Below the pieces are notes generated by a model that saw only the letters and a program-made list of their open reading frames with translations, did not search any database and was not told the origin of the DNA. Shown here in pieces: positions 1-18,772 of a stretch of DNA of 64,000 bases. Positions within the stretch are counted from its first letter, which is position 1. Each line of letters begins with the position of its first letter. The DNA is from an uncultured Planctomycetia bacterium (lineage in GTDB: Bacteria > Omnitrophota > Gorgyraeia > JABMRG01 > JAFGKX01), in assembly GCA_964570585.1 (NCBI GenBank), contig CAZMYR010000001.1:17441-81440 (forward strand), read 5' to 3'. A program made the position numbers and the translations under genes.

Positions 1-3000
1 TAGTTTGTGGCTATGTTGAATTTAATCACTCCTGCTTTGGCTAATACAGCAAGTTCTTCCATATCGCCTTCGATGGTTTCCGGCTGGACAATAGCTACAT
101 TAAATCTCTCGGCTTCTTTTTGCAACTCTTCTGTAAGCCAGGGACTTATCTTGTCCACCTGTGGTATAGGAGCCAATGTCTTCATATCATAATCTATGCC
201 ATGGCCTGAGCCATTATTTGTGGCAATAAGGTCAAAAGATAGGTTCTTTAATTTAAGATACTCTCCCATTACCCTTATAACAGCAGGATGGGTCATCTTG
301 GGCTCAAGCTTACCGTCACGTCTTGGGTTTGGCACTTTCTTATCAACCTGGCCCACCTCTATCACTTTTCCAAAATGGCCAGTTAATTCAGGAGTATGTT
401 TATCCACTATCCTATCTATATATTCAAGCTGATGCGCTGTCTCTTCTGCGTTGCTGGTAGGAAGAAGTAGTAGCTTTTGTTTCTCGCTTATACTCTTTGA
501 GACTTCTGGGCTTAGGTCACCTGCTATAGTAGCCCTGGCAACTTCTCTCATTATTTTGTCATAAGCAGCAATAACTTCATCTTCCGAAATACTTTCCACA
601 GGGCTCTTTTCGGAGACACCTGGCCCACGAACATCTTTATACATACGAGCTTTCTTGCGTAAAACGCCAAAGGCTGCATTCATATTTCTAACAACGCTGT
701 CAATCTTCCCAGGCGCTCTATTACGTTTTTTCATATTCGAGATAACTGTTCCTCTTATATGGTCAAGTCTTGCCATATTGTCTTTATCATATGGATTTGC
801 CTTAAGAAAATCAGCGCCCCATTCAAGCGGCAGCATAGAGTTCCTCTCCAGGCTAACAACTAAATCCTCAGCAGGCGTGCCATTTTTCTCATAATAGTCT
901 AAGACGGCCTCACCAGCTACTCCATCATAAATAGTTGAAGCATCTATGCCTATTGAGGTAAACCCTGCTTCAATTAAGGATTCAATATCACTCTTTATTA
1001 TCGCGCGCTCTGCGCTGAGATTATCATTTAACCTCCTCTGGACGGCTTCCAAGATTTTCACATCAATAGTATCAATTCTTATCTTATCATTATATGTACC
1101 CTCACCATTTTCCTTCTCATATTCCTCTTTCAATATCGCCTTTGCGTCAAATAAATAATCTTCATACTGAAGACGGCCACCATGTAAAACCAACGGGTTT
1201 TTAAATCCAATTCGCTCTGCTACTTCTCTTACATAGGCAACCACTCTTTTTTCATGTAAAGCATAACTAAGCTGGGAACGACCTACTGCAAAAATAACAG
1301 CAGCATTTTGGGCCATCGCAGCCTTGAGATGACCCTCAATCTGATTATAGCTGACGATATCGGCTGCTATTAATGCCTTCCTTGCCTTTTTTACAGCCTC
1401 GAATGCATCATGCCCGGGGGTAAATAAGCCCTCTGAGGGCCCAATTATAGTAGCTGTGCCGGTTGAGCCGACAGTTTCTATATACTGGTCATCACGGTGC
1501 TGGATAAGTTCGGTGATGGCCTGCTGGACCTTCCCTCCAGCTTCTTGGATAAGCATCTGGCGTGCTTTATTAGCAGCCGCTTCATCCCCGCTAATTGTCT
1601 TACGATCCCACTTTCTTATCTCAGCAATCCTTTCTTCAGGTAGTTTGCCTGCCGAGGAGGATTTTGCTTCAGCTATTGGGAGACCAGTAAGCTCCAGTGG
1701 CAGTGGCTGTATGCCACTTGCATCCTTAGTAATCAAAAATCCGCTATGTCGGTCATTGAGGATGGCGTTGGGGTCAAAGGTTATGAATATCTCATTGGTA
1801 AGGAAAGGGACTTCGTCCCCTGCCACCAGGTGCGAAGCTTTTTCTACAGGAAGGCGATGGATAATCACAGAATCGCCATCTTCAATAAAGTCAGGTTTTG
1901 CTTGACCGGTCTGAATAAATTTGGCTTGAATGCCTGCTCCGTTAACATCAGTAACTTCAAATAGATAACGAGCCTTAAGCAGAAGCTTCTGTCCTATCTC
2001 TATATAAGGAAAGTCTTCTTCTTTGCGCAGGCGGGCTACATCCATAACCGCTAATTTGTCTTTTACTCGACGGGTTACATAACGAGCAGCGAGTAACTCA
2101 AGGCCTAACCTTCCCTTATCATCATAATCATAATTCAGGGCAGTATTATACTTTGCTGTCTTGGCCTTTAGGCTTCTTCCGTATATTTCGCGAATAGCCC
2201 TGGCAAGCTCGTCAGGAAGCCTATATCCAAGGAAGGTATCCACCATTTCTCCCAAGTCCTGCTCTTCAGGAATTAGCAAAGGATTATCAGAGCCAAGCAT
2301 CTTTTCAGTCCAGTGGACAATCCTGTCAAACCCCTCTTTTCTTTCGCCTTTAAAGCTGTAGAAGTAGCCAAGATTATCTCTATTTTTCACCCTTAAACCT
2401 TTTATTATTTTACCCTCAGCCAGGGCCTGTAAGGTCTCTTCAATTAATTGCTCGGCTAATCTATCCAGTTGTTTCTGAATTCTTTTAGGCAGTAACTGAT
2501 ATGCTAAACGAGGCAAGACTTCATAGACTATCCATAGGTCACGACTCAAGATTATAGCTGCTTCGCCTTTCTCCTTAGCTTCCTCGGTTAAAAGGTCGGT
2601 TGCATCAACCTGCTCAAAGAAGCCATACATCCAGGTTGCGATTGCATTACGAACCTCTATGCTATCTCCATCAACCCTGGTAATAATCTCATTCTGGGTA
2701 TTCGATTTTCTGCTTAAGAAAGAAACAAAATATTGTCCTTCATCGCATTTTACATAATATTTTGCACCATCTATCAAATCTAATGCGATTTCGCTTACAT
2801 TATGTAAGGTCATGCCGGTCAGCTTAATATCTACAGGCTGAGCAGGTTTATAGATGTAATAAAGCGAACCATATTTTCTTTTCCCTTCTTGATATTGGCG
2901 CCTGGTGCCGGCTTCTTCAAACCCTAATTTTCCAATATACTTCTTAAATCTCTCTAAGACCCTATTGACTACCTTTTGCTTTTCATAACGGCCAAAGTTA

Positions 3001-3344
3001 GCATGCGTTCCTATCCTAACCTCAGGGCTGGCAAAAGACTTGGGTAACTCATTGTATGCATCAAGGAATGCCCCGAATGTCCTATCTCCCATAACCATGG
3101 GGACCAGCATCTTATTGGTTATCTCCACTGCGCTCATTTCTGCTCCGCTTAAAGGTTCCATTCCGTGACCGCTAACCTCTGCCCCTCCACCAATGCGGGC
3201 ATTGTTACGGAGGTTTACCAGAAGATTGGACTTGCGGCCTCCAAAAATCAGAGTCTCCTCATTCTCTGCCATTATACTGCCTTCTGTCTGTTTCATTTCA
3301 TCCTTCACATAACCAAAACCTACCGGGCCCTCTAAAACATCCAT
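1..3344 (-). CDS. Partial large multidomain protein, >=1114 aa; the C-terminal part continues past the window start. Ends in a class-II (Zn) aldolase-like module.
   Basis: Hand translation of the minus strand, codons topping at positions congruent to 2 mod 3. Verified codon by codon for 3-1673 and 3120-3360, with spot checks at 2400-2460 and 2880-2940; no stop from the ATG at 3342-3344 to position 3. Starts MDVLEGPVGFGYVKDEMKQTEGS. A possible SD (AGGGGAA) lies 13 nt upstream. Class-II fructose/tagatose-bisphosphate aldolase family signatures: SLIEAGFTSIGIDAS (941-985), IATNNGSGHGIDY (~200-240), GVIKFNIATN (12-41). Linker motif AEAKSSSAGKLP at 1638-1673. Absent from the supplied ORF track because it runs off the edge. 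Confidence 0.55.
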   Translation of the reverse strand, partial: MDVLEGPVGFGYVKDEMKQTEGSIMAENEETLIFGGRKSNLLVNLRNNARIGGGAEVSGHGMEPLSGAEMSAVEITNKMLVPMVMGDRTFGAFLDAYNELPKSFASPEVRIGTHANFGRYEKQKVVNRVLERFKKYIGKLGFEEAGTRRQYQEGKRKYGSLYYIYKPAQPVDIKLTGMTLHNVSEIALDLIDGAKYYVKCDEGQYFVSFLSRKSNTQNEIITRVDGDSIEVRNAIATWMYGFFEQVDATDLLTEEAKEKGEAAIILSRDLWIVYEVLPRLAYQLLPKRIQKQLDRLAEQLIEETLQALAEGKIIKGLRVKNRDNLGYFYSFKGERKEGFDRIVHWTEKMLGSDNPLLIPEEQDLGEMVDTFLGYRLPDELARAIREIYGRSLKAKTAKYNTALNYDYDDKGRLGLELLAARYVTRRVKDKLAVMDVARLRKEEDFPYIEIGQKLLLKARYLFEVTDVNGAGIQAKFIQTGQAKPDFIEDGDSVIIHRLPVEKASHLVAGDEVPFLTNEIFITFDPNAILNDRHSGFLITKDASGIQPLPLELTGLPIAEAKSSSAGKLPEERIAEIRKWDRKTISGDEAAANKARQMLIQEAGGKVQQAITELIQHRDDQYIETVGSTGTATIIGPSEGLFTPGHDAFEAVKKARKALIAADIVSYNQIEGHLKAAMAQNAAVIFAVGRSQLSYALHEKRVVAYVREVAERIGFKNPLVLHGGRLQYEDYLFDAKAILKEEYEKENGEGTYNDKIRIDTIDVKILEAVQRRLNDNLSAERAIIKSDIESLIEAGFTSIGIDASTIYDGVAGEAVLDYYEKNGTPAEDLVVSLERNSMLPLEWGADFLKANPYDKDNMARLDHIRGTVISNMKKRNRAPGKIDSVVRNMNAAFGVLRKKARMYKDVRGPGVSEKSPVESISEDEVIAAYDKIMREVARATIAGDLSPEVSKSISEKQKLLLLPTSNAEETAHQLEYIDRIVDKHTPELTGHFGKVIEVGQVDKKVPNPRRDGKLEPKMTHPAVIRVMGEYLKLKNLSFDLIATNNGSGHGIDYDMKTLAPIPQVDKISPWLTEELQKEAERFNVAIVQPETIEGDMEELAVLAKAGVIKFNIATN

Positions 3345-3392
3345 ATGCAGACGGATTCCCTGCTTTAAATATTCTTGCTTCATCTTCTCCAC

Positions 3393-6300
3393 TAACAGCT
3401 TAAACCCAGCGTAGAATTTCACTTCAACATAAAATATTGTCCTCTGAGTATCTTTTTCGCCTAAACGCCTGGCTTTCTCTACATCCTGCCTGGCTATAGT
3501 CCTGGCGTACAAGGCCATCAGTTCATCGCCTTGAACCATCTTGGCTAATTGGGGCAGCCAGGTAATTAACCTGTCCTTGTCTTCATCGCCGATTATGGCT
3601 ATTTCTACATCTTTCTCTTCAAAGGTGGCCATCGCCTGTCGGACAAACCACGGTATATTAGGATAAGGTTCGCCATCCGGGAACATATAGTCAGGGTCAT
3701 CGTGGACTACCAAAACCTTTTGCCCTAAAGCTCTAAAGATAATCTGATCCATTCCCCCTGAACCATGCTGATAACCTAATCCAAGGGTGGGTAAGCTATA
3801 TTTCTCAAACGGTCGCTGCCAGCAGAGTAAAGGCCGTTCTGAAAACTTCTCATCAAACTCTTTCTGTTCAGCTCTAGAAAAGCCTAAACTCTTTCCTAAA
3901 TCTTTACGGATTGCCTCCCATTTATCATCCCAATCTAATTCCCGGGTAGCCATTATAAGCTCGCGTATTCCACCCTTCTGGTGGATAGCCCTTTTCCATA
4001 ACCATCCCCATATATCTCTTCCTAAACGAATATAGGCTATTGAATATAAATAGTGGGTATAGGCAACCTCTACTGCAGAGAGCACTTTTATTTCTCTCTC
4101 TTTCAGCTGTTCTTCTGGACAGGGCCTGGTTCTGCCAGCAATAATACCTTCTTTTAAACCCTGCATCTCCTCATCATTAATACTCAATACCTGGGCTAAG
4201 GTATGTTCCCTACCTTTTTTATCCAGTTTAATATCGAACCAGCTGAGCATCTGTTTCCAGCCGCTAAACTCCCAGGGGTTATGGCTGGCTGTGCCGTGGC
4301 CACCACCAAATAAAAGATGCTCTGCCTCTTTATAGGCTTCGAGTAAATCTCCTCTTCCTTCTCCTACACATATCCCATCATTCCAGAGCAGGTTGACAAT
4401 AAGATAATACATTGGGGTTGAGATAATACCTTTCTTTTCAAAATCTTCCGCCAATACATTAAATCTTTCCACATCTTCAGGGCGCAGACGTCCGGCATCA
4501 AGGTCTTCCTTTATCCATTTCATAGCACGGTCAAGGCCTTTCTTATTAGATTTTACTAAAAATACGTTTACTCCTGAATAAAGCAGGCCTAAGGCATAGA
4601 CATCTCTATGTTCCTGTATAGGTAGGCGGCATCCACCACTGACTAAACCCCAAACCTTTTCTCGAAGCTGCTGATGCAGTTTGGGATTTTTTTCTATTTG
4701 GCGTTTTAATTCTTCGTCTTTTAAACCCATGCCTTCTAACATAGTGGTACCTAATTCTATGGCTGAGGAGAAGATAAGCTTCTTAGACATCAAGGCCGGA
4801 TATCGCTCTGTAATCCCAGGAAGTTTTAAGTCTGTGGTTCTAAAAGCGGAGCGTAAATCATAGGTTCTATAGGAGAACCACTGGCCATGTTCCATAATAT
4901 CGAATCTTCTAATAATATCGCCCTCGCGAACCTCTATATGTTCCTGGATAGTAACTCCTTTTGCCTTAATCTCTCGGGTATCATCAAAAAGAATATTATC
5001 TACACATTGGAGTTTTCCCTCAGTCCTTTTTTCCTTATAGGTTATCTCATGGGGGTTATCAATGATTTCTACTCCTGCAAATGGCCTCATATGACCATTT
5101 TTCTCAGGAACTTCATTTAGGATATCACTTATCTCATTAAGGAGTTTAGCTGAATCTTTAACCGTTAAACCAAAGACTTGAGAAAAGCTTTCTACTCCTT
5201 CTTTCCTGCTTTTAGAAGACACTCTGTTAGCTGCTGTATATTGAGCATCTCTGGTCATTATCTGGTGATAGGCAACTATCTTGGTAAGCGTCTTGTATTG
5301 TTCTAAGTCAAACTCAGATTTATGTCTGCGGAGGGTTTCAGGATTATGAAGGGCTTGGGTAAGTATCGATAATTGATCGGTCTTCAAGTTTAATCCAGGG
5401 TGAAGCATAGCATAAAGCGAGGTCAACATCGTAAGTAATTCTTCTGGAGCTGCTTCTCCTTTTTCGAGTTCTGCTCTTCCTATCTCATAGCCGCCATTCT
5501 TCAGAACAGCATTATATGCAAAAATTGTCCGCCAGATATCGCCGGCTTCTAAATAAGCCTTAGCCACCGCCCGGTATAGATGGCGCCATTCCTCTGCCTC
5601 TACTTTTTGGGGTAGTTTACGTAATTCAGCGGCGTCGGCCTCTATATCTCCCCCGGTAACCTCTGCTAAAATCCCAAGTATCCGGCTATCATCCTTTGTC
5701 TCTTTGAATATATCCACTGCTAATGGTAGAAGCCGCAATATAAAGTGCAATCTTTCCAAGCGCTTAATCCTTCTGGATAAATCTTTTTCAGTCTCGGCAA
5801 CATCTACTCCGTGAGTTACATAACTGCCTGCTGAAGCAGATTTGGTGGCAATAGCACCAATAAGGCTTTTAACTTCTTCAACGGGCTTGAAGAACTTAAG
5901 AACCTCTGCTTCGCCTTTAGCGCTAAGTACATATCTGCCAACAGTTGATGGAACATAAAGCGATTGGCCCCTCTTAAGAGGGATATCTTTCCCGCCTGAG
6001 CTAATTACAACCTCGCCTTTTATAACAAGAATATCGTGAGAAGTACCTTCTACTGGCGCTACACTTAATTCAGCCTCAGCGCCTTTTCCTTTTCCATTAA
6101 GCGTAAATCTGTGCACATTAAAATATTCCTGGGGCCAGACATTGGGGTATGTGCCTTGGATAAGGACTTCTTCTTTTGCTATCAAATCCTTGCCATACCT
6201 ATCTCGCCATTTTCCACGCTCAATTTGAGGCTCTAAAACAAAATTCTTCTCCTCTGTTGTTGTATCCTTTAAACCTTTCCTGACGAACATCTCTATTGTC

Positions 6301-8702
6301 TCAAACTCTGCCTGTAAGAAATCCTCTTCTGATGTAGTCGGACGTCTGGCTAAATTCTTGCGCATTATTAAACCTTTATCTTTTTTGAAAACAATAGGGG
6401 TAAAAAAGTCTGCAAAACTGAAGGTAATATTAGAGGTTTGCTGGGGTTCAACAAGTATAAGATGTTCATTGCCGCCTGTATCGTTTACAGGTATTACTAT
6501 CCAGGCCTCATTTTTGGCCTGCGGTCCTTTCAGGGGATGGGTCTGGTGGGAAAGGCCAAATATACTATGGGGATAACCGACGGGTGAGAGGATAACCTTC
6601 CCGGGCTCAAGTTCAATCTCATTAAATAATTCTACAATCCTGGCTCTGACACCTTGGATTTTGCTCATAAGCTGGCTGATTCTACGCCGATTTTCACTCT
6701 TTACAAATTCTTTTATATCCGGGATAAAATCGCCCCACCATCTACTCCCTGCTTGATAGTCGCACCAGTTTGTATAAACTTCTTTAAATCTTCTAAAAGT
6801 CTCTTCGTCAGTTATATCCAGGAGGTTCTTTAGCTCATGCTCCAGCTCTCTCTCTTCCTTCAGCCACTCAATAAAAACTTCTATTCCGACCTCATTGAGC
6901 TTTTCGTTGAACCCCATATGTACTCTATCTACAAAGTTTGTGCATTCAAACTTCTCAAAATAACCCTTATCTAAAGACTCACCAAGCATTTCGGGATTAT
7001 ATCCGAGAAGTTCTTTTAATGTTATAGGAGCCACATCTCCTAACGCTGTATCAGGAATAGTTGATAAGCCATCGTTATGAGTTGAATTAAACCAGAGCTC
7101 TGCTATGGGGTTATTTTTATCTATCGGCCTGCCTAAAACTATCTGGTTGGCTATTCCGCCCCAGGCATAATTTTTTTCCGCAGGAGTAGTTATTAGGGGA
7201 CTGTATTTTGCCTGTTCTATCAAATCCTTAATCTGTTTTATTCTGGTTTTTGCCTGGTTATTAGTTATAAGTTCGGGTAGCGAATCATCTGAAACATGAA
7301 AGTGAATCTCCCCGATGTTTTCTACTACTGTTCTGATAAGGTCAGCTATCTTCTTCTCATTTAACTCTTGATAAAATGTAAGCAGGTCTTTCTTGCCTGT
7401 AAACTGCTCCAGCATCTCTGTAGGGTTACTAATCCAGATAGGTTTAGGTGCGTCTTCTATGGTCCTGAGCATATAGTGTTTACCACCGGTGGATATAGTA
7501 GTATACGGTGGAAATTCTGCGTTCTTAACAATAGTTGCAACTGCCCCTGCCAACATCGGATCATAAGCAGGGTTAATCTTTTTCATATCTTTTGGGTCAA
7601 GCTTAATCGATATATCATTAAATCTCAATCCCCCTAAATTTACCATAAAGTCGGCATATCCCGGAAGGGCAAATGTCCAGGAACCTGCACTGACCCTCTG
7701 GGCCAAGACCTCTATTATGTTACCCGCTTCATCATATAAGATATTAAACTGGATACCTTCCCCTTCTGTTACATATTTTATGTCCAGAGAAATACCTTGG
7801 TAGTGTCCTACTCCGGTGCTGGTTGCCTGGATTGAGCCTGGCATCATATCGTGCAGAAAGGAGGTTTCATGAATGGTGGATAATTTCTTTTCCCTGGTAA
7901 GTTTCTTAAGGACATCGGGCACCCCTATAAGGCAATGGGCCATAAGATAGATAAGCTGCTTATTTCTCGCTGTTTGGAATTTCTTTGAATCATAGCGGGT
8001 AAGGGTAGCAAAGGCTGGGTTTGAAACGCTGCCTACGCCAAGCTTATCAATGCCTTCTGTGCCTCTATGATAAAATCCGAGTCCGCCTTCTTCATCCACT
8101 ACCAAAAACGGCAAGGCACTGACATCCAGATAGCTTAATCCTTTAGGGCTGGTAGCCATTCTGTCCATATCTGCAGTAACTCCAAAGGCTTCTCCTTCTG
8201 GCACATCTCGCTTAATCCATGATATTATATTCAGGGCCTGTCCGGCCATAAGCTGGAGAGCCTTTGATATCTTTGAATTCTGCAAGGAAAGACTCAGCTT
8301 TATTACTGTTGTATAAAATTCTTTTACATAGGGCTCGATGGTTCTATTATCAATAAACTTTTCTTTTAACTCATTGCTTATGGCTTCAAGGGCCGAAGGC
8401 AACTGGACAGATTTATATGCATTAAATAAAACCTTCGCTGCCTCTTTTGCTTTATACCCACCAATAACCAGCTCTACCATGCTTTCTACTTCAAGCTTAC
8501 CTGCGGTGGAAAGATAAGACTTGCCTGTTGGTACCTCTGATAAACTACTTCTAATTTTTGCACCCACGGAAGAGGGTGTATTTCGTAGAGAAGTTGCTCT
8601 TAGGGCATCAGTATCAGCAAATGCAGTTGGCTGAATTGTGCTTACAGCGAATATTATCGCTACGATTAAACTTACCGCCTTCTTTAACACCCCTTTACCC
8701 AT
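3393..8702 (-). CDS. Secreted large multidomain protein (1769 aa) with an N-terminal signal peptide and two mannose-6-phosphate-isomerase-like cupin segments.
   Basis: Start ATG at 8700-8702, preceded by GAGGAG with a 7-nt spacer. An alternative in-frame ATG lies at 8727-8729. The frame was verified open codon by codon from 8702 down to the TAG at 3393-3395. N-terminus MGKGVLKKAVSLIVAIIFAVSTIQPTAFA-DTD has positive n-region, hydrophobic core and AXA cleavage site, typical of a signal peptide. A PMI class-I-like motif GLSHQTHPLKGPQAKNEAWIVIP lies near 6480-6560. A cupin barrel ending GQSLYVPST lies at 5941-6122. This ORF is NOT in the supplied ORF track. Confidence 0.6.
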
Positions 8703-8893
8703 TTTCAAATCTCCTCTTTTTTTTGTCATAGTCTTTCATAAATCTTTGCTTTGTTATGCTTAAGTTATAAAAGTCTTTAATTACCCGAATACAGCGCAAC
8801 CCTTTTGCCTCGGTTTGTCCCCCTCGAAAATTTTTTATGGAGACAGTAAAATCGAGGCCAAAGGGTTGTTTAAACGCTATAACTCTATAACCC

Positions 8894-11800
8894 TTATGCT
8901 GCTATCAGGGCAGCCCAGGCCTGGCGCTGGAGTCTCTCTATCTCTTCCTGGCTTAGTTTCTCAACACCTGGTAGAGTGGTTATTATAAGCTCAAAGACAC
9001 TCCAGGTACCTTCTCTTAGGGCTTGCTCAACTATAGCTTCTATAGTATTCTGGGTGTATTGCTGATACATCTTCTTTATAGCAGGGAACAGCTGGTTGAA
9101 GTTATCTTCATTGAGAGACAAAAGACCCCTGGCTACGGCAATAAGCTCTGCCATTGGAAGAAGTATATCATCTTTCTTAACCCCTATCTTAAAGAGTTTG
9201 ACATCAGCAAGCTGTTGTTTGTCTGAGATAAGGATGGTTTTCTTTCTGTTTAGGGTCTGTCTGTTTACATCAGCTAATAATACTATCTGGGTCTTTTTAG
9301 TTACTTGGCCTTTATCCTTAAAGGATAGGGCATATTCTAAGGCGTCACGGAGTCGGTGGTCTTTAAGCATAGAGATAACCGCCATCCTCTGTTTTATATC
9401 AGGAATGGCGTTGGCATCTACGATGATGGTGCCTTCTGATTCTATCCTGGCAATAGGGGCACAAACTCTGGCAAATTCTATTACACTGCGCTGGGTTGCT
9501 ATCTTAAGCTGGATAAGCTCTTCTTCAGCTGAGGTAAGAGTAGTTTCTACTTTTAACCTTGTTGCCTTTGCACTTAATTGAGTCAATTTCTGTAAAGACT
9601 CTGTAAGCAAGCTATCATTGAGTAGTTCTACCTCTCCAGGAACCTGGGTGGTCTCTTTAACCAGGGCGTCAAGAAGTATATTCTCGGCATTAAGTAATCC
9701 TCTATTAAGCTCTGCCAGAGCCCGGTTGCCGGCTGAGGAGGATTTATTAGGCTTGTCTGATGATTTCTCTCTGCCAACCATCATATCGTCCATAGCAAAG
9801 GCTTGCACTTTTTTAGCATAAGCCTTCTCTGCTTTTGTGTATTTGGCACCTGCTCTTCTAACTAAGATTTTCTCTGCATCAGGGAGTCGCTTCAATAATT
9901 CTTTTCTGGGCGCAGGACCGGCTACGAGATTCTGTTTCTGTAATTCAACTATCTGTTTTCCGGTAAGAATAGCTATGCCAGCCTCTGCAGATTTATCTCC
10001 GATTTTTTGCACCAGTGCAGCTACCGGCATAAACCCCTCTAACATATTTTGAAGATCCCTTACCTGATATAAAAGAATATAGGCACCCTCAGTTTCTTTT
10101 AGCGAAAGAAGGGTTATATTAAAATCGTCGCATTGTAAAAGTAGCAGCCCTTTCTGTCCAAGTTTAGCATCTTTTATAAACTGCTGGTCATATCCAAGTT
10201 TTGAAACCTGTTTTTTAAATCCAATTAACACATTGTATAAAAGCAGCAGCCGGGATGCCCTTACATCGTTCATAGGAATATCTAGAGCCAGCCTTACAAG
10301 AATCTCTGGTTCAATAACCTTAACTTCCTCACCGGCCAGTATTACACCCGATGAGGAGGATTTGGATGTGGAAATAGGTTTTGGCAGCAGTTTTGAAATA
10401 GCTGCTGTGTCAAGCTCAGAAACCAGCGTAAGGGGAAGGTCCTCGCTGGGTGGCAGGTATTTGGCGGCATAATCGCTCTTCCAATCCTCTGTGAGCTGAG
10501 CTATCACCTCTTGCTTAACTATAGCATAGATACTGCCTTTTTTATCAATGCGTACATCAACAAGAGGGTTATCGCCTTTATATTCCCACCATTTGTGTCC
10601 TATCTTGAATCCTGGCTTGTCAGTCTCCATATAGAGAGAACCCGGCCCAAAGATAACCGCACTTGTGTCTATGCCGGACTTTAAGAATATGAGTTTGCCT
10701 TGCTTAATTTTGACAGATGACCAGCGAGTATTGGCTCCCATATTTCTGAAGGTATAATCACCGGCGGAAGGTATCTCTGGTATATAGTTGATTGCATGCA
10801 ATGTCTTAAGAAGACTTGAGAAAATTTCTGTAACCGACTTCTGTTCCTTAGCTCCGGCTGAGGAGGACTTGGTAGATTCCTGTATCTGTGCCATTAGTCT
10901 AATATTGCGCTCTAATACATTTTGAGCAGCAATATTATGAGCTAAAGCCGGTTTATCCTTAATTCTTTCCATCTGTTCTTTTGTAAGATGTGCTATATAA
11001 GCCTCAAGGCTACGCCTGCCCTTTATTCTCATCAATATTTGTATATCTGCAAAACCAGACAGTTCTGCCTTCAAAAAGCTAATGTATGCGTTATCAATTC
11101 CGGGCATACGAAAACATCCAGTAATCTCAAAAGGTGTGTGTTCAAACATACTTTGAATCATTCGCTCATTCAAAGATATGTCTCCTACGCTTCTGGCTTC
11201 ACGGCTTAATTTTTCAAAATTGTCAAATGGGAAATTTTCTTTTATATGAGCAAAAACAAGTCCATTATTCGCCAGATTCTCGCGTGTAATATCTTCGACT
11301 TTAATACCAACATCACCTATCCGGACTATCTTGCCGGCTGACGAGGATTTGCCTGCAACAGGTATTATTGCTACCTCAGGAACTAACTCAAAGACAGCCC
11401 AGAGGTCATATCTGTTGGGTTTTCCTAATTCAATAAAGCTGCCACCACCTTCCCAGCGATGTTGACCATATGCTACTACACCACCTGCCGTGGTAACAGG
11501 TTTACCTGTTTCAGGGTCAAATCCCCAGAATGGACCATGGGCATGGCCTCTTGGCAGGGGAAGATATGCTGGCTTTCCACTCTCATTATAATAGACCATA
11601 CCGCCCTTACCGGTTCCATTGCGCATACAGAAGTGAATCTCACCAAATGTGGTGTCTTTGGTTAGTTCGCTATGGTCGTGGTCTGCACAGTTTACACCCT
11701 GGCCTGCGGTCCAGAACTGGATATAACAGACCTTTTTCTCTTCACCGTTTATTATCTCTATACCCTTGAGGTTATAGAAAGCTAAATTATCAAAATGCTC

Positions 11801-14800
11801 GCCCCAACCATAGGTATTACAGTTTACCCAATTAAGCAGGTCTGCTCTTGAGCCGGTGGTGATATCAGTCTGAGACATTTCAGTAACAACAGCGTCAGGA
11901 GTTGTGTCAACCATGATAGCTACTATGGCACCTTTTTCTCCTGCCTCGATATACTCTTCTGTAACCCGGGTGTTCCTGAGCTGCTTGGCAGGAGCAAAGG
12001 CATCACGGTTGATATTGCTTAATTTACCGGTTATAACATTAACATAGTTTTCACCGCGTGTATGATCCAAGGCTAATTTTGCACCTGGAGCTAATTGGAC
12101 ATACTGCATACTCCAGCCTGCCATCTCCCATTTTTCGGTGGCGTTTATCAGGCTTTCAGCCATAGTCTTGAATCTTATTGCTATTTTGCGCTCATCCTCC
12201 TCGGTTATCTTTGCATCAGGTGTTATTTTAGCCAAAACTACTGCTGGCATCTGTGAATTTCTCTCAAACATCATCTGTTTTCTATAGGTCTCGGCCATGC
12301 TTAGCTCATTATCGTCATTTACCCCTTGGAATTCCCTGATATCCGCCAAGGCAGGAGCGATAACACTTAATGTACCATTTTGGGCAAGAATAGCAGAAAT
12401 CTGAACAAAATTTATCTCTCCTTTCTTGTTGGCAGAACTATCATAAGGATTTAGAAAATCACCCGCACTATCTTTAGGGAATTTCTCCAAAGTACTGAAT
12501 ATATCTTTTGCTTTTCCCATAAAGAGTCCTACATCGTCGCAGCCAAAATCTAATTTTGCACCTTTTTTGCTGCCTATTACCCTTCCATTTTTATCTACCA
12601 TGATAGGAGCGTAGGGGTCCTTTTTATATGTAGTAGCTATGCTAAAGGAGACATCGCCTAAGGCTTGATGTATCATAGTAAGCCAAAGAACAGTCTCCGG
12701 ATTCAATACTGCCATATCTCCCCATACAACAAGTAGATCTCCATCAAATTGCGCTAAATTCTCCTTTGCAGAAAGTACTGCGTGGCCGTCACCTTTTATA
12801 TAGTCCTCAAAGACATATTCTGCATCAAACCCGCCTTTATCTAAAGCCTCTTTTATCTCTGCAAAATTTCCGCCTTTACCTTCTTTTCCTAATGCATCCC
12901 TCCATTGTTCGGAACGGACTACAACAACGGGTTTTTTATCTAAAAACGCTGTCTGTCTTAATACGTGATAGATTATAGGTTCGCCGCATACCTTCTGGAG
13001 AACCTTTGACTTCTTGTCTGTCATCCTGGTACCCAGGCCTGCAGCAGCAACAATAACCCGTACCGGCCTTTGAAGCTTAAATTCTGCTGAATCTTTTATA
13101 CCCAGGATATCAAGAGTTAACCTTCTAATAGTATCTTTATTCTTTTCATAATTAGCCCCATCCCTTATAAGGTCTCTTAAGACGCTCTTGGCTAAAAAGT
13201 TCCTTAATTCTGTTAGCTCTTTTTTAAATTCAGCTATAGAAGAAAAACCGCCTTTCGTGTCCTTGACTTTGTAGTGTAGCGCCAAGAACCTACTCTGTAT
13301 AAGCTTGTTTAAATCTGTGGCATTAACAAATTTCATCTTTTGTATAATATTTTCAATCTCGCCATAACCTGGCCGGGTGAAGAGGCCATAAATTAAGTAT
13401 TCCAGCTCACCGATGGGGTCAACTCGCATAACAGAATAATCTATTAAAAAAGGTGAACCATCGGGTTTTATTAAGATGTTTCTGGTGTTTATATTCCAAG
13501 TCCCGGGAACATCTTTGCCCTGCAGGTATGAAGCTACATCGGTTATATTTATAACTGTATCTATGAGCTCGATACCGCGATAACCCATAGCCCCTTCATT
13601 AATGCCCTCAAATTTCTCGCCAAAAGGTACACCTTCGGCATAAGGATAGACTATCGCCTTTGCATCTTCTAAGCCGGCCCATTTATCTTTACCGGCGCTC
13701 ATAACCACTGGCCTATATATATGGGGATAATCCTCCGGGACTCTTCGTAAAAATTCATATATCTCATCTGCTTGCCTTTCCATACCCTCTGTTTCTAACT
13801 TCTTAATAACAAAAAGCTGCCCACTTTGTTCATCTTCTGCTAACAAGAGTTTCTCGCTTCCGTGTATCGGCCCGATGATAATAAATGTTTTTTCACCCAT
13901 CTTGTTACACAGGGTCAGTTTTTCAACAACTCCCTCTTCTCCAGCCGAGCTGGCTTTGACCATAGTATCGGCGGCTGAAGCTACCTCGGATCTTTCAATT
14001 CTCTGTCTAACGCCCTTAAACTCATCCGTAGTCCTGGCAACATCCATAACATCTGGCCAGAAAAGAAGCGTTTCCCCGTCGCTTTGCATCTGTTTTCTTA
14101 CATCTTTTTCGACCTTTTCAATAAAGGCATCTTTCGTGCTATCATTTATTCCGCTCATATACCTTCTTTCATTTGGTTCTGGCATCTCATCAAATACAAT
14201 CTCTGTACCGTCTGCTAAGGTTATAGAATAACGCGTTTCCTGTTTCACCGCATCCCCATGCTTCGCTGGCATTTTGGTGGTTTTGATATCACTTCGTTTT
14301 ACGGTATGGGGAGGTCTGCTATCGTCTATTTCAAAGTAAACCACTCTGTCTTCTTTCTGCTTCACATCACCAACTAAATCCTCTATTATTATTACCGGCT
14401 TTAGCCTGATAATAGCTCCTGTTTGGTCTACTTCCATACGATATGTTGTCTCTACCGGATGTTTGGTGATTTTAGTGCCTTCTACTTTTTCCACCCCTGT
14501 TCTTGGTGGTAAAAATTCTACAACGAATTCGCCCGCAAGTATATTAAGGCTATCATGCAATTCTTTATTGCCATGTTTTAATGCCGCAGCGGCCTTCTTG
14601 GTAAGGGTGTTTATCCTTTCTATTGTCCTTGCCTGAAGGTTGTGTAGGGCCTCTTTGCGTTTGTCTGGAATCTCATAAATCTTCCCTTCTTCTATCATCT
14701 CTTTTCCAAGATACCTCATACGTTCTTTATAATCTACGCGGTCATCATATTTTTCCATAGCTTCGAATCTGTCCAGGGTTCTTCTTACCACCCTGTTTAA

Positions 14801-17800
14801 GATATGCCAATCTGCCATAGCGCTATGTTCCTTACGCACCTGTAGGGGTATATTGGGCCTTGTTGCGGTCTTTAATCTATGGTGTCCACCTACTGTCCTG
14901 GTCCATGTCATAAGCCGGCCTGTCACGACCCTTACCAGATAGTTAAAGTATGGCTCTTCTCTCCTGTACAGCTGGCCTATTGTTGGTATAGGAAAAACTG
15001 AATCATCAAAACTGAACATATTCATACACATAAAAATCCTTTTGGATAAAGTGGTATCTTCTTGCGGGTCAAGAAGTGCGGTAACAGCCTCTGGCCTTGC
15101 AAGATAGAGTACCTTAAGGGCCGCCTCCTGCAACATATCAGAATCTATGGCACCCCTTTCCAGAAATGAATCTATCTGAGCATCGGCTGATTTATCTCTA
15201 TCGTGATTAAAGTGGGTTGTTGCGCACTGATTCCTTAAAAAGCGAATCTCATCCACATTGCCTGTAAATACCGAGCCTGCAAAACCCCTCTTATCCTTAT
15301 CTACAATCATCGCTCCTGTATTTGGGTTTACTGCAAAGGCACCAAGCGCCCTATCTAATACGCCAAGATAATCCACTGTATATCTATCATATTCATATGT
15401 ATGATATTCTGGAAATTTTTTCTCTTTATCTTCTGGCTTATTATCAACATGGGCAAGTATCGCATCCTCTGATACTACAACCCGTTCAGGAAGTCCTGTA
15501 TCGAGTAAGGCATTAAATCGCGTAGTATTATCAACATTCTTTTGAACTATCTGTCCTGCCTTCTCTGGTATTAAGGCGGTAGTCTCCTTTTCCTCCGGGC
15601 TACTATATCCATAGTATATCCTTATAACATCTGTTACCTTCTTGGAAAGAGTTGGATGAGTTCTTAGATATGCTACAAAATCCGATTCAGACTTTATTTT
15701 TTGCTTAGCAGCAGTGTGTAATTCCTTGAAGAATTTTTTTCTCATATCCTTAACCTCTTGCCTTCTCTTTTCTAAAATATCATCAAGCACTTTCCTTTTG
15801 GCAACCCTCATAACCGGGAGAGAATCATCATCCACTGAAGCCATTCTGAGACCCATTGCAAGCATAATGGTAAAGTTTCTTATCCCAGATATATTAGAGG
15901 CAAACTGGTCAGCCAAAATTCTTTCCAGCTGTGGCCTAATAGAGTCTACATCCTTAAACTGGCGTAGAATATCTTCGCGCAACTTGTCCTGGCGCCAAAG
16001 ATCTGTATAACGTTCAGTAAGCGTATCGATTACCTTTTTTACGATGTTGTCTCTTACATCCCAATCGACATAGGTTATATTGAAACCTCTTTTTTTAAAA
16101 GTCTCAATTACCATCCTATCTAATTCCCCCCATTTCATAGCGCGTATATCCTTTGGTGTCTTTTTACCCCCAAAAAGGGTTTTATTTACCCATTCAACCT
16201 CTTCGTCTTTCATCGGCTCTGCCTTGGCTCCAGGACCTTTAGTGAGTACATTCGAGGTAACAGCTATAGGGATATTGCGGTGACCAAACTCATCTAGAAC
16301 TTCAGTTTGACGCTCCAATACTCTATATAATGCACTGGGTCTTCTATATGAAGGTATCCATAAGGGGCCCAGGGTTATATCTCGCGCGCGCGCCATAGTA
16401 GCTCCTTTTTTAATTAAACGCCTCGATTCATCTAAAGCTGTTTCTGCAAATTTCTTCATATATTTAGGGAGGTCTTCTGCAGCCAGCTCATAAAATACCC
16501 CTTTACCTCCTGCTACATCTGAAACAATAAGATAATCTTCAAGTGCGCTGGTAAGATTAAGATAGTCCGGGGCATAGCCATTTATATAGCCGTGATATCT
16601 TAATATGTCTTCATCATATATATAGTAATTGACACCCTCTGGCGTTTCTATTCTCTTGATATTAACCTTTTTGCCGGTCTTATAACCTATCACCCTTAAA
16701 AAGTAGAGAAAGTCCTTGCCAAAATCGGTTGGCTCATCTTCATCATTAAAAATCATCTTAATATCATCCTGAATAGCAGCAGGCCTTATGCCTAAAACTA
16801 CCTGCAGAAGAGGTGCATTGGCCTTTTCGAGTAAGAATCTCTTTATGGCTTTTCTGTTTTCGGGAACATTATCGGCAAAGGCCTTATTACTCACCTTAGT
16901 TTTATCATCTCTCAGCAGTCCGCTGGCAACATTAGATATTCTTCTTACATTATCGGTATATTCTATATCATCAAAAAGATAAGCCAATTTATCCCTGAGG
17001 GCATCAGCTGCCTCCCTAAGCCTGCTTCGTCCCGTTATAGTGGTTGGGTCGGTCTCTTCAATTGTCTTTATAGGCACAAAAGATCTATATCTGTCTATAA
17101 TAACCGGTATGTAAGGGAGGTTGAATGTAAAACCGGAGATGTTTCTTTCAATCTGAGCGCCCACATAGATAACAGGCCTTCCATGTTCATCTACATCTTT
17201 CTCCTCCTTTAAATTTATAAATGCGTGGGGTTCCTTCTTTGTAACCTGCTCAGTAATCTCTTCTATAGTAAGCTCTTTATCATAATTATCAGGCAGCTCA
17301 AACGTCTCCATAAGCCCATCTATGGAAAAGAGTATAGAACCGGTGTGGAAATAAGGAAAGTGAGTTCTTAATTGGTCTTTGTCTAATTCAGATACGTGCC
17401 TTTTAAATTCTTCTGTCATATCATTCTTATCAGCAATGACCATCTTACTTTCGCCTGTCTCCTTATCAATCGCTGTTAAAAGAAGCCCTCCTCTTTCATT
17501 TCTGTTTTCAGCAACGCCTACTAAAGCTACTGGGACCGGTCTACCATCCTCTCTCGCTTCCTCTATCTGCTCAGCCAAAAGACCCTTTAATTCTGCTGAT
17601 AACCTTCCGGCAGTATTATTCATATGGGCGTTCATCACAAAGTTTATATTGTCTCTTTTTAACTTTGCTAAAATACCGTTTAATATAAGCCACCTGACAA
17701 AATCCCAGTGCCCGGGAGGATTGGTTACTAATCTGCCATCTGAAAGCCTGAGCGGTTTTCCAATATGTTGTCTTTGGATAGCGATACCTCTGCGTAACGC

Positions 17801-18772
17801 CTCTAATTCTTCTTCGGAAATCTTTTCTTGCCGATAATCCTCCTCCTTTTGTTCAAGGTAGTGGATTAATATAGTTTCTGAGGGTGTAAATCTTATCTGT
17901 ATCCCCTGTTCAAATATCTCTATATCGTTGCGGTTATAGCCATAATGGTCATTCCTCTCCAAAATCTCTTTTATCATCTCTCCAGTTTCACCGCTCCCCA
18001 TGAAATATACTTTAACCCGGGCACTCTTATCTTTGGTTGCTTCTCTCAGTTCCTCTTGTGAACGTTTCGCTTCTGCTATCTTAAGCTGCACAAACCCATA
18101 AAGCTGGTCTGGATTATCCGAGTTTAATTCAGGTATAGCAAATACAAATCCGGCCCTCATCTCGCCTTTTGTCCGTGTGCTTAATCCTCCTGCAGAAGAC
18201 CCAAAAGACGCAGGTATTCTACTGCCACGTTCTCTGAGTTCATGCAGTCGCCTTTCTTCCATATTCATAATATCTATAGGGCCTCTCCTACCGGTGGGAT
18301 CTGTGGTTGGCGGCGATTTAAGTTCCATCGGCCTTCTTATATTAACATCTTCTACGTAGTGGGCCTTCTGGGCAAAGTTTCGCATCGCCTCAAATGTCGG
18401 TAGCTCAGTCTCAAAGAAATGAAACTCAAGTAAGTCCCGGGCCTGCTTAAGTATGCGCTGCGCTTGTTCCTTCTTACCCTGTTTCAGCGCCTGCTCAGCC
18501 AAATCAAGCTGGGTGTTGTATATATTGTATAACTTCCCGTGTAAATGCTCAGGAATAACAACATCTGGTTTTATTGGACGGTTACCGCTTGAACTACTCT
18601 TCAGAGCTGCTACTATTGGCGGCCTACCTTCAAAAACCCCGACTGAAGAAGGCCTCAGATGGTCCTGAAGAATCACTGTAGTATCTACAGGAGCTGCCCA
18701 TAAGGTATTGGTTATAGTAAATGTTATCGCTATACTCAAGTTTAAAACCTTCGCTAATATCTCTTTAATCAT
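8894..18772 (-). CDS. Giant secreted multidomain protein (3292 aa) containing an APH/anomeric-sugar-kinase-like module followed by a sugar-1-phosphate nucleotidyltransferase module, plus at least 7 copies of the K-S-S-S-A-G linker motif.
   Basis: ORF track entry. ATG at 18770-18772 with GAGGAGGA 5 nt upstream. N-terminus MIKEILAKVLNLSIAITFTITNTLWAAPV is signal-peptide-like. Stop TAA at 8894-8896. Confidence 0.85.
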   Translation of the reverse strand: MIKEILAKVLNLSIAITFTITNTLWAAPVDTTVILQDHLRPSSVGVFEGRPPIVAALKSSSSGNRPIKPDVVIPEHLHGKLYNIYNTQLDLAEQALKQGKKEQAQRILKQARDLLEFHFFETELPTFEAMRNFAQKAHYVEDVNIRRPMELKSPPTTDPTGRRGPIDIMNMEERRLHELRERGSRIPASFGSSAGGLSTRTKGEMRAGFVFAIPELNSDNPDQLYGFVQLKIAEAKRSQEELREATKDKSARVKVYFMGSGETGEMIKEILERNDHYGYNRNDIEIFEQGIQIRFTPSETILIHYLEQKEEDYRQEKISEEELEALRRGIAIQRQHIGKPLRLSDGRLVTNPPGHWDFVRWLILNGILAKLKRDNINFVMNAHMNNTAGRLSAELKGLLAEQIEEAREDGRPVPVALVGVAENRNERGGLLLTAIDKETGESKMVIADKNDMTEEFKRHVSELDKDQLRTHFPYFHTGSILFSIDGLMETFELPDNYDKELTIEEITEQVTKKEPHAFINLKEEKDVDEHGRPVIYVGAQIERNISGFTFNLPYIPVIIDRYRSFVPIKTIEETDPTTITGRSRLREAADALRDKLAYLFDDIEYTDNVRRISNVASGLLRDDKTKVSNKAFADNVPENRKAIKRFLLEKANAPLLQVVLGIRPAAIQDDIKMIFNDEDEPTDFGKDFLYFLRVIGYKTGKKVNIKRIETPEGVNYYIYDEDILRYHGYINGYAPDYLNLTSALEDYLIVSDVAGGKGVFYELAAEDLPKYMKKFAETALDESRRLIKKGATMARARDITLGPLWIPSYRRPSALYRVLERQTEVLDEFGHRNIPIAVTSNVLTKGPGAKAEPMKDEEVEWVNKTLFGGKKTPKDIRAMKWGELDRMVIETFKKRGFNITYVDWDVRDNIVKKVIDTLTERYTDLWRQDKLREDILRQFKDVDSIRPQLERILADQFASNISGIRNFTIMLAMGLRMASVDDDSLPVMRVAKRKVLDDILEKRRQEVKDMRKKFFKELHTAAKQKIKSESDFVAYLRTHPTLSKKVTDVIRIYYGYSSPEEKETTALIPEKAGQIVQKNVDNTTRFNALLDTGLPERVVVSEDAILAHVDNKPEDKEKKFPEYHTYEYDRYTVDYLGVLDRALGAFAVNPNTGAMIVDKDKRGFAGSVFTGNVDEIRFLRNQCATTHFNHDRDKSADAQIDSFLERGAIDSDMLQEAALKVLYLARPEAVTALLDPQEDTTLSKRIFMCMNMFSFDDSVFPIPTIGQLYRREEPYFNYLVRVVTGRLMTWTRTVGGHHRLKTATRPNIPLQVRKEHSAMADWHILNRVVRRTLDRFEAMEKYDDRVDYKERMRYLGKEMIEEGKIYEIPDKRKEALHNLQARTIERINTLTKKAAAALKHGNKELHDSLNILAGEFVVEFLPPRTGVEKVEGTKITKHPVETTYRMEVDQTGAIIRLKPVIIIEDLVGDVKQKEDRVVYFEIDDSRPPHTVKRSDIKTTKMPAKHGDAVKQETRYSITLADGTEIVFDEMPEPNERRYMSGINDSTKDAFIEKVEKDVRKQMQSDGETLLFWPDVMDVARTTDEFKGVRQRIERSEVASAADTMVKASSAGEEGVVEKLTLCNKMGEKTFIIIGPIHGSEKLLLAEDEQSGQLFVIKKLETEGMERQADEIYEFLRRVPEDYPHIYRPVVMSAGKDKWAGLEDAKAIVYPYAEGVPFGEKFEGINEGAMGYRGIELIDTVINITDVASYLQGKDVPGTWNINTRNILIKPDGSPFLIDYSVMRVDPIGELEYLIYGLFTRPGYGEIENIIQKMKFVNATDLNKLIQSRFLALHYKVKDTKGGFSSIAEFKKELTELRNFLAKSVLRDLIRDGANYEKNKDTIRRLTLDILGIKDSAEFKLQRPVRVIVAAAGLGTRMTDKKSKVLQKVCGEPIIYHVLRQTAFLDKKPVVVVRSEQWRDALGKEGKGGNFAEIKEALDKGGFDAEYVFEDYIKGDGHAVLSAKENLAQFDGDLLVVWGDMAVLNPETVLWLTMIHQALGDVSFSIATTYKKDPYAPIMVDKNGRVIGSKKGAKLDFGCDDVGLFMGKAKDIFSTLEKFPKDSAGDFLNPYDSSANKKGEINFVQISAILAQNGTLSVIAPALADIREFQGVNDDNELSMAETYRKQMMFERNSQMPAVVLAKITPDAKITEEDERKIAIRFKTMAESLINATEKWEMAGWSMQYVQLAPGAKLALDHTRGENYVNVITGKLSNINRDAFAPAKQLRNTRVTEEYIEAGEKGAIVAIMVDTTPDAVVTEMSQTDITTGSRADLLNWVNCNTYGWGEHFDNLAFYNLKGIEIINGEEKKVCYIQFWTAGQGVNCADHDHSELTKDTTFGEIHFCMRNGTGKGGMVYYNESGKPAYLPLPRGHAHGPFWGFDPETGKPVTTAGGVVAYGQHRWEGGGSFIELGKPNRYDLWAVFELVPEVAIIPVAGKSSSAGKIVRIGDVGIKVEDITRENLANNGLVFAHIKENFPFDNFEKLSREARSVGDISLNERMIQSMFEHTPFEITGCFRMPGIDNAYISFLKAELSGFADIQILMRIKGRRSLEAYIAHLTKEQMERIKDKPALAHNIAAQNVLERNIRLMAQIQESTKSSSAGAKEQKSVTEIFSSLLKTLHAINYIPEIPSAGDYTFRNMGANTRWSSVKIKQGKLIFLKSGIDTSAVIFGPGSLYMETDKPGFKIGHKWWEYKGDNPLVDVRIDKKGSIYAIVKQEVIAQLTEDWKSDYAAKYLPPSEDLPLTLVSELDTAAISKLLPKPISTSKSSSSGVILAGEEVKVIEPEILVRLALDIPMNDVRASRLLLLYNVLIGFKKQVSKLGYDQQFIKDAKLGQKGLLLLQCDDFNITLLSLKETEGAYILLYQVRDLQNMLEGFMPVAALVQKIGDKSAEAGIAILTGKQIVELQKQNLVAGPAPRKELLKRLPDAEKILVRRAGAKYTKAEKAYAKKVQAFAMDDMMVGREKSSDKPNKSSSAGNRALAELNRGLLNAENILLDALVKETTQVPGEVELLNDSLLTESLQKLTQLSAKATRLKVETTLTSAEEELIQLKIATQRSVIEFARVCAPIARIESEGTIIVDANAIPDIKQRMAVISMLKDHRLRDALEYALSFKDKGQVTKKTQIVLLADVNRQTLNRKKTILISDKQQLADVKLFKIGVKKDDILLPMAELIAVARGLLSLNEDNFNQLFPAIKKMYQQYTQNTIEAIVEQALREGTWSVFELIITTLPGVEKLSQEEIERLQRQAWAALIAA
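12380..13080 (-). other. Sugar-1-phosphate nucleotidyltransferase (NTP_transferase fold) module inside the 3292-aa protein
   Basis: VIVAAAGLGTRM verified at 13021-13074. This is the G-x-G-T-R glycine-rich loop of GlmU, RmlA and MurU-type nucleotidyltransferases. Downstream LLVVWGDMAVL fits the family. Boundaries are approximate. Confidence 0.55.
13380..13700 (-). other. Protein-kinase-like / aminoglycoside-phosphotransferase-fold sugar kinase module inside the 3292-aa protein
   Basis: Translation PGTWNINTRNILIKPDGSPFLIDYSVMRVDPIGELEY (verified at 13451-13510). It resembles the HGDxxxxNxxxxxxxxxxxIDxE catalytic/Mg loop of APH, choline-kinase and AmgK-type kinases. Boundaries are approximate. 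Confidence 0.4.

Follow-up and report, generated by a model that had tools for sequence, protein, structure and literature searches.

The 64,000-nucleotide (nt) stretch analysed here (the window; positions 17,441 to 81,440 of contig CAZMYR010000001.1, assigned to the Omnitrophota in GTDB) encodes a giant protein with a signal-peptide-like N-terminus and, within it, a region resembling phosphomannose isomerase (PMI). The locus raises the question whether a cytoplasmic-type sugar-phosphate enzyme is really embedded in a protein apparently destined for export and, if so, what it does there. A sequence-only reading of the DNA had reported PMI-like cupin segments at 5941-6560, in a secreted protein of 1,769 amino acids (aa). 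We find that nt 5871-7226 of the minus strand encode a single, complete domain with the type I PMI fold, and that this domain belongs to a rare PMI subfamily, so far neither named nor described, in which the set of metal ligands and catalytic base appears to be kept in permuted order. The interval first reported lies inside this domain and in an open frame, but comprises only its C-terminal ~45%. Its two segments are PMI-like as proposed, but not separate, since both fall within the one bicupin domain: on the minus strand, QTHPLKGPQAKNEAW (nt 6501-6545, aa 729-743) was found in the catalytic block and GQSLYVPST (nt 5943-5969, aa 921-929) in the C-terminal cupin, each exactly where described. 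Residue 1 is set by the first of two in-frame start codons on the minus strand (ATG at 8729); the numbering of P0052, the full-length protein introduced below, is lower by 9.

For the PMI-like assignment, significant matches were obtained in hidden Markov model (HMM), profile-profile and structure searches alike, and this proposal of the sequence-only reading stands. Against Bacillus-type PMI, represented by an alignment of three annotated manA products, hhalign returned a probability of 98.9% and an E-value of 3e-17, with both partners aligned over their full length. In the PDB, a profile of homologues matched the PMIs of B. subtilis (1qwr; E 6e-10) and Salmonella (E 2.6e-6), and a structure search with the domain gave a significant PMI match. 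Searched in isolation (aa 501-959), the domain scored above the Pfam gathering thresholds for PMI_typeI_cat (24.2 vs 22, in a match spanning only profile positions 7-78 of 143) and MPI_cupin_dom (29.6 vs 27), and exactly at threshold for Cupin_2 (27.2/27.2); with the whole 2,909-aa query, the matches were marginal (MPI_cupin_dom 25.5 bits, manA TIGR00218 E 6e-8). The domain contains both parts of a PMI bicupin, a catalytic cupin, with or without a helical insert, and a C-terminal cupin. Cupin motif 2 (G-x5-P-x-G-x2-H) is present as well, with E-P-G-K-V-I-L-S-P-V-G-Y-P-H aligned by hhalign to the canonical K-P-G-D-F-F-Y-V-P-S-G-T-V-H; with its double-stranded beta-helix and this motif, the domain belongs to the cupin superfamily. 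Most of the 31 homologues found are stand-alone proteins of 430-525 aa, which cover 95-98% of the query and are 27-36% identical to the window copy. For the two closest homologues (45% identity), the source labels go no further than 'Bacterium' and 'Planctomycetales'.

In canonical type I PMI, zinc is bound by the Gln and His of 'SVQVHP', the Glu of 'GKTE' and the His of 'HAIG', and Gln, Lys and Glu take part in catalysis (PMC4718643). Collinear alignments were made to E. coli ManA and to Bacillus-type enzymes, and residues were counted in 95 family domains. At the places collinear with canonical Gln and His, the domain has H604, which varies within the family (His 71, Tyr 11, Gln 7), and G606, which is Gly in 92 of the domains. 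Of the canonical ligands, the motif-2 histidine alone has a true collinear counterpart, H721 (94/95). The block that follows H721 resembles canonical 'LSVQVHP...GKTECW', and its residues Q729 (93/95), H731 (94/95), K739 (94/95) and E741 (92/95) are near-invariant, as is K593 (94/95) further upstream. When this 45-residue block alone was used as a sub-profile, its best local match was to canonical residues 89-123 (E 1.9e-4, 37% identity). We rejected a one-to-one collinear placement of the four zinc ligands, since the collinear positions are variable or Gly and the displaced Q-x-H...K-x-E block is near-invariant. From these alignments we conclude that the ligand and base set (Gln/His/Glu/His plus the catalytic Lys) is probably conserved and its order permuted, with motif 1 placed behind motif 2; Q729, H731 and E741 would then converge with H721 on one metal site. 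The putative metal ligands (Q729, H731, E741, H721) are each conserved in at least 92 of the 95 domains, though not in the canonical order. The subfamily is a natural experiment in cupin active-site plasticity.

The rarity of the subfamily is apparent from a search of 1.84 billion clusters, which yielded 90 cluster representatives at E<=1e-30, beyond which scores dropped steeply, to ~1e-13 for ordinary PMIs of ~320 aa. Its genes keep consistent company. Stand-alone genes overlap or abut genes for four-domain phosphohexomutases (PGM_PMM) at five loci (L003, L004, L019, L023, L025), and PMI-like and PGM domains are fused in proteins of ~1,040 aa (L020, L026, L029 and L030, from metagenome-assembled genomes (MAGs) of Acidobacteria/Acidobacteriota and Thermoanaerobaculia, as well as P0033 and P0050). 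Seven proteins of ~900-940 aa carry a nucleotidyltransferase followed by the PMI-like domain (P0040, P0047-P0049, P0051, P0055, P0066). In P0040 and P0049, the match of the transferase part to TIGR01479 (GMP_PMI) is confined to the guanylyltransferase section of that model, and the PMI-like domain therefore replaces the type II PMI cupin. Nucleotidyltransferase, PGM and PMI-like domains occur together in one large chain in P0070, P0084 and P0086. A mannose-1-phosphate guanylyltransferase (GMP)-like gene directly abuts the PMI-like gene in a Planctomycetota MAG (L001), and rmlA and a sugar epimerase/dehydratase gene lie beside it in another MAG (L005). The partner mutases are divergent and score below every NCBIfam equivalog cut-off, the best being archaeal GlmM at 128-154 bits vs 439.

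Three steps lead from fructose-6-phosphate (Fru-6-P) to GDP-mannose, catalysed by PMI, phosphomannomutase and guanylyltransferase. Because the fusion partners are the next steps of this pathway, the fusion and neighbourhood pattern supports a PMI function, which we infer for the subfamily as a whole. The sugar-activation theme of the sequence-only reading is likewise borne out, both by these relatives, whose partners in fusions or in neighbouring genes are phosphohexomutases and nucleotidyltransferases of the mannose-1-phosphate guanylyltransferase-like or RmlA kind, and at the locus itself, where the same chain contains a phosphoglucomutase/phosphomannomutase (PGM/PMM)-like domain and a neighbouring 3,292-aa protein contains an NTP_transf_3 domain and an AUDH cupin. 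Here, then, is a previously unannotated PMI subfamily with its metal-binding and catalytic block moved to another place within the cupin, for which a function can be proposed from several types of fusion, and which may fill 'missing PMI' gaps in the GDP-mannose pathways of Acidobacteriota, Myxococcota, Planctomycetota and Omnitrophota. Two bifunctional architectures, PMI-like plus phosphohexomutase and guanylyltransferase-like plus PMI-like, are apparently undescribed.

The host protein is much larger than the 1,769 aa first given. Its frame runs from the ATGs at 8729 and 8702 to the left edge of the window without a stop codon (2,909 codons), and was missing from the list of open reading frames because that list skips frames running past the window. 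Because it is 100% identical across 2,900 residues to P0052 (3,924 aa), retrieved in a representative-library search, the host protein measures 3,924 aa, counted from the second ATG; the first ~2,900 residues are carried by the window and ~1,000 more fall beyond it. Of the two in-frame ATGs, only that at 8702 is preceded by a Shine-Dalgarno sequence (GGAG), and P0052 starts there, which leaves a signal peptide of 29 residues. The N-terminus reads MGKGVLKKAVSLIVAIIFAVSTIQPTAFA followed by DTD and shows the classic n/h/c layout of signal peptides, with a Lys-rich n-region, the hydrophobic stretch AVSLIVAIIFAVSTI and then QPTAFA ahead of DTD, before which cleavage would be expected. In a Kyte-Doolittle scan, this stretch was the sole hydrophobic segment among the 2,909 visible residues. 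Such a Sec-type signal sequence predicts export of the host protein. Signal-like N-termini are also present in the homologues L017 and L018 and in most family members of at least 1,300 aa; small relatives from other phyla start without one. The earlier remark that a signal peptide on a cytoplasmic-type enzyme is unusual is correct in general, but the arrangement is not new for giant proteins of Omnitrophota. The paradox of a cytoplasmic enzyme behind a signal peptide is real and recurrent, yet already published for the giant proteins of this phylum, in which sugar-phosphate enzyme domains behind signal peptides have been described, with the suggestion that either the predicted location is mistaken or sugars are pre-processed extracellularly by these domains (West-Roberts et al., 2023; bioRxiv 10.1101/2023.11.21.568195).

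The reading we favour, and regard as reasonably probable, is that the domain is an active metal-dependent aldose-ketose isomerase of hexose-6-phosphates, interconverting Fru-6-P and mannose-6-phosphate (Man-6-P) with a permuted catalytic block, beside a phosphohexomutase domain. The block that carries the general base and all but one of the four metal ligands would have moved to a position just behind the motif-2 His, and the original collinear positions would have decayed. The Man-6-P produced from Fru-6-P would be passed to the phosphohexomutase-like domain, which lies nearer the C-terminus of this polypeptide, in a fused route from sugar phosphate to nucleotide sugar. Several observations weigh against this. 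NCBIfam manA (TIGR00218) is matched with 32 bits vs a cut-off of 116. The canonical ligands are lost from their collinear positions, Gln being replaced by His, Tyr or Gln and His by Gly, with no collinear partner for the Glu/Lys-x-Glu strand. The canonical Arg of 'TYR' is Ser (S771) in 91 of the 95 family domains, so that phosphate binding may differ from that of canonical PMI. No guanylyltransferase-type domain was detectable in the four giant proteins of the window with an HMM derived from the fusion proteins. Finally, the compartment predicted from the signal peptide is not expected to contain Fru-6-P or Man-6-P, and the exported context therefore argues either against these substrates or for an unusual site of action. 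The sequence points to export and the enzymology to surroundings like those of a cytoplasm, possibly the cytoplasm of a host or prey cell.

It is rather unlikely that this cupin, as an active isomerase or epimerase, acts on a different substrate, such as glucose-6-phosphate (Glc-6-P), some other phosphorylated hexose or heptose, or a sugar without phosphate that is set free outside the cell from wall polymers of prey or host. The predicted extracytoplasmic location and the loss of the phosphate-contacting 'TYR' Arg would fit such a substrate, as would the divergence of the partner mutases and the one neighbourhood that offers rmlA, the gene of a glucose-1-phosphate enzyme, and not a mannose enzyme; extracellular pre-processing is also one of the two proposals of West-Roberts et al. 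for such domains. Against this, several independent fusions put the domain exactly in the place of the type II PMI cupin of GMP-PMI, its constant linkage to phosphohexomutases implies a hexose-6-phosphate product, and R790 and K791, near-invariant in the family, could bind phosphate.

We think it still less likely that the domain is a catalytically silent pseudoenzyme that binds sugars or sugar phosphates, recruited into an exported adhesion or cell-wall-processing protein. The usual substrates would be missing from an exported context, the identity to stand-alone relatives is low, and the helical insert of ~45 residues that separates SHQTHP from KNEAW in most stand-alone members is absent from the window copy. 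However, the window copy keeps every near-invariant residue of the family, the PGM-like domain of the same chain keeps its catalytic serine and metal loop, and conservation of H721, Q729, H731, K739 and E741 is no less strict in the 30 copies from proteins of at least 1,300 aa than in the 64 small copies, which argues against a dead domain. That catalytic residues are as constrained in embedded copies as in cytoplasmic ones sharpens the question of where, and on what, enzyme chains with signal peptides act. A chance or generic cupin similarity of a segment unrelated to PMI, for which sub-threshold Pfam PMI and cupin matches on the whole 2,909-aa sequence and a phmmer match to the PDB of only E 0.006 might have spoken, is refuted by the decisive profile and structure evidence from hhalign and the structure search and can be set aside with near certainty.

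Around the PMI-like domain, the host chain comprises, in order, the signal peptide, the region of aa 39-501, the PMI-like domain, aa 960-1440, the PGM/PMM-like region, aa 2001-2430 and an aldolase-like region; coordinates of these and of other features of the window are collected in Table 1. Pfam searches of aa 38-500, 960-1440 and 2001-2430 gave no match. A profile of the N-terminal region found nothing among PDB sequences up to E 10, and for the region of aa 39-501 no more than five homologues were retrieved, of which two adjoin a CofD-like domain. Its cupin, just upstream of the PMI-like domain, is possibly closest to archaeal cupin-type phosphoglucose isomerase (cPGI). The PGM-like domain retains the TASHNP phosphoserine loop, catalytic serine included, and the DxDxDR metal loop; TASHNPWEFSGWK and GDEDKDR align with the phosphoserine and Mg loops of a phospho-sugar mutase from P. 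horikoshii. The aldolase-like region scored 38.1 bits vs a cut-off of 25.5 for F_bP_aldolase (Pfam), in a match that spans profile positions 5-79 only, and phmmer found no match to it in the PDB. By eye, this region reads 'LVLHGG' where canonical 'HLDH' stands, and the catalytic Asp and a zinc His may be missing.

Table 1. Features of the host gene and its surroundings. Positions are nt of the window unless stated otherwise.
Feature	Position	Strand	Basis or remark
Host gene 'protA', N-terminal 2,909 codons	3..8729	minus	Runs past left window edge, stop-free
Signal-peptide-like N-terminus	8616..8729	minus	Translation and Kyte-Doolittle scan
N-terminal region, aa 39-501: helical bundle, then cupin (~nt 7599-8171)	7227..8615	minus	Structural resemblance
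Complete PMI-like bicupin domain, aa 502-953	5871..7226	minus	Family HMM envelope
N-terminal PMI signature YAWGG ... AELWF	7089..7169	minus	Aligned to 1qwr, Salmonella and E. coli ManA
Strands FEKFE (K593) and RVHMGF (H604, G606)	6909..6959	minus	hhalign maps and family counts
Cupin motif-2 histidine, PHSIFG; H721, counterpart of canonical 'HAIG' His (fourth zinc ligand)	6555..6572	minus	hhalign
Transposed catalytic block S-H-Q729-T-H731-P ... K739-N-E741-A-W743, holding QTHPLKGPQAKNEAW	6501..6551	minus	Sub-profile alignment
EPQQTS, counterpart of canonical 'ETQQNSD'	6432..6449	minus	hhalign, PDB profile alignment, family counts
C-terminal cupin (MPI_cupin_dom, aa 867-940), holding GQSLYVPST	5910..6131	minus	Pfam
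K-S-A-S-A-G linker directly after PMI-like domain	5826..5843	minus	Motif scan
PGM/PMM-like region, aa 1441-2000 (TASHNP nt 4275-4292, GDEDKDR nt 3570-3590)	2730..4409	minus	Pfam, NCBIfam
Second motif, K-S-S-S-A-G, upstream of aldolase-like domain	1647..1664	minus	Motif scan
Class II fructose-bisphosphate-aldolase-like region, aa 2441-2909, continuing past the window	3..1409	minus	Pfam, NCBIfam
K-S-[S/A]-S-A-G copies of the host protein beyond the window	P0052 aa 3023, 3373, 3659
3,292-aa neighbour	8894-18772	minus
K-S-[S/A]-S-A-G copies in 3,292-aa neighbour	~11330-11350, 10850-10870, 9725-9745	minus
1,900-aa neighbour		minus
10,643-aa neighbour	25175-57106	minus
RRXRR-HNH endonuclease	58840-60315
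DUF4172-Fic protein	60408-61535
Response regulator fused to phosphopantetheine-binding (ACP-like) domain	61622-62806
GAF histidine kinase	62826-63992

A short motif, K-S-[S/A]-S-A-G, recurs eight times, with five copies in the host protein and three in the 3,292-aa neighbour. Where the flanking domains are recognised, it stands at their boundaries, with copies directly behind the PMI-like domain and the AUDH cupin and one upstream of the aldolase-like domain. The window contains five copies, vs 0.002 expected from residue shuffles. The copies differ in their codons and have unrelated flanks, and the motif is therefore conserved or selected at the peptide level; it occurs in none of 19 related proteins, large or fused, from other genomes. 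We regard it as a candidate site of polyprotein cleavage, of a hinge or of modification. As such it gives a tangible lead on where giant proteins might be cleaved or joined, their cleavage points having been described as unknown by West-Roberts et al. (bioRxiv 10.1101/2023.11.21.568195).

Three further giant genes, for proteins of 3,292, 1,900 and 10,643 aa, lie upstream on the same strand. The 3,292-aa protein contains a MobA-like NTP_transf_3 domain (aa 1907-2032) followed by an AUDH cupin (aldos-2-ulose dehydratase/isomerase; aa 2205-2463, E 5e-37), a second sugar-converting cupin in the locus. The 1,900-aa protein has a sub-threshold UDPGP match. In the 10,643-aa protein, SecA_DEAD, SecA preprotein-binding and Helicase_C domains occupy aa ~990-1730; HEAT is matched weakly, and clusters of transmembrane-like segments lie at aa ~2030-2610, 7640-7930, 8290-8410 and 9130-9460. 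This architecture agrees with that of the SecA-bearing giant proteins described for Omnitrophota. By eye, all four giant proteins have hydrophobic N-termini, of which three pass the hydropathy threshold and that of the 3,292-aa protein fails; no second PMI-like copy was found in the four. Strand and GC skew switch at ~56-58 kb, past the block of giant genes.

A more far-reaching proposal, which we hold to be improbable, is that the four co-oriented genes encode an exported, self-translocating assembly line. In it, the cPGI-like, PMI-like and PMM-like domains would stand in pathway order (from Glc-6-P via Fru-6-P and Man-6-P to mannose-1-phosphate), followed by the aldolase-like domain, and the chains would be cut or hinged at K-S-S-S-A-G; acting in the periplasm, at a contact site or in a host or prey cell, such an assembly would divert the hexose phosphates of the victim.

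Compared with type I PMI of the Bacillus type (EC 5.3.1.8; B. subtilis YvyI/ManA, 1qwr; also 1zx5, 2wfp, 1pmi), the window domain shares the WGG...ELW signature, the Lys of 'LTKILD', the motif-2 His of 'HAxxG', 'E-x-QQ-x-S-x-x-T-Y', the C-terminal cupin, and the kinds of residue proposed as ligands and base (Gln, His, Glu, His, Lys). It differs in its length (~450 vs ~315 aa), in a helical insert of ~90 residues after the second strand, in the Gln-x-His...Lys-x-Glu block, which follows the motif-2 His in the window domain and precedes it in type I PMI, and in forming part of a chain of 3,924 aa that starts with a signal peptide. With the type II PMI of GMP-PMI enzymes (AlgA/ManC/XanB, TIGR01479), relatives of the P0040/P0049 kind (~900-940 aa) share the order of guanylyltransferase and PMI, and presumably its logic. 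However, type II PMI is a small single cupin of ~115 aa fused directly to a guanylyltransferase, whereas the module found here is a bicupin of ~450 aa with type I fold, in a chain that, unlike GMP-PMI enzymes, has no guanylyltransferase domain; it is thus not a type II PMI. The cupin of aa 39-501 shows no sequence-level similarity to archaeal cPGI (P. furiosus, T. litoralis; 1x7n, 1j3p), its putative ligands would be His/Gln/Asp/Asp vs His/His/Glu/His in cPGI (PMC6627849), and its match to cPGI is only slightly ahead of those to generic cupins.

The closest relatives in overall design are the 'Archaeovorin-type' giant proteins of Omnitrophota, with which the host protein shares the N-terminal signal or anchor, divergent sugar-phosphate domains (PGM/PMM, class II aldolase) and a predicted extracytoplasmic location; the homologues that share its N-terminal and PMI-like architecture come from Omnitrophota/Omnitrophica MAGs. 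Divergent SecA domains are a feature of the giant proteins described by West-Roberts et al. (bioRxiv 10.1101/2023.11.21.568195), and a preprint of 2026 reports a sugar-metabolism module including PGM, a SecA_DEAD architecture cluster, and signal peptides or transmembrane helices in 94% of long proteins (bioRxiv 10.64898/2026.06.07.730766). In the window, SecA_DEAD and preprotein-binding domains are absent from the host protein but present in the co-oriented 10,643-aa neighbour. At 3,924 and 10,643 aa, the host protein and its largest neighbour both fall well short of the working definition of West-Roberts et al. (at least 30,000 aa). Neither preprint mentions PMI or cupins (bioRxiv 10.1101/2023.11.21.568195, 10.64898/2026.06.07.730766), and our literature search returned no paper linking PMI to Omnitrophota giant proteins. 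To the sugar-phosphate enzymes arrayed along giant proteins of the Omnitrophota type, the present locus adds PMI and possibly also a cupin PGI.

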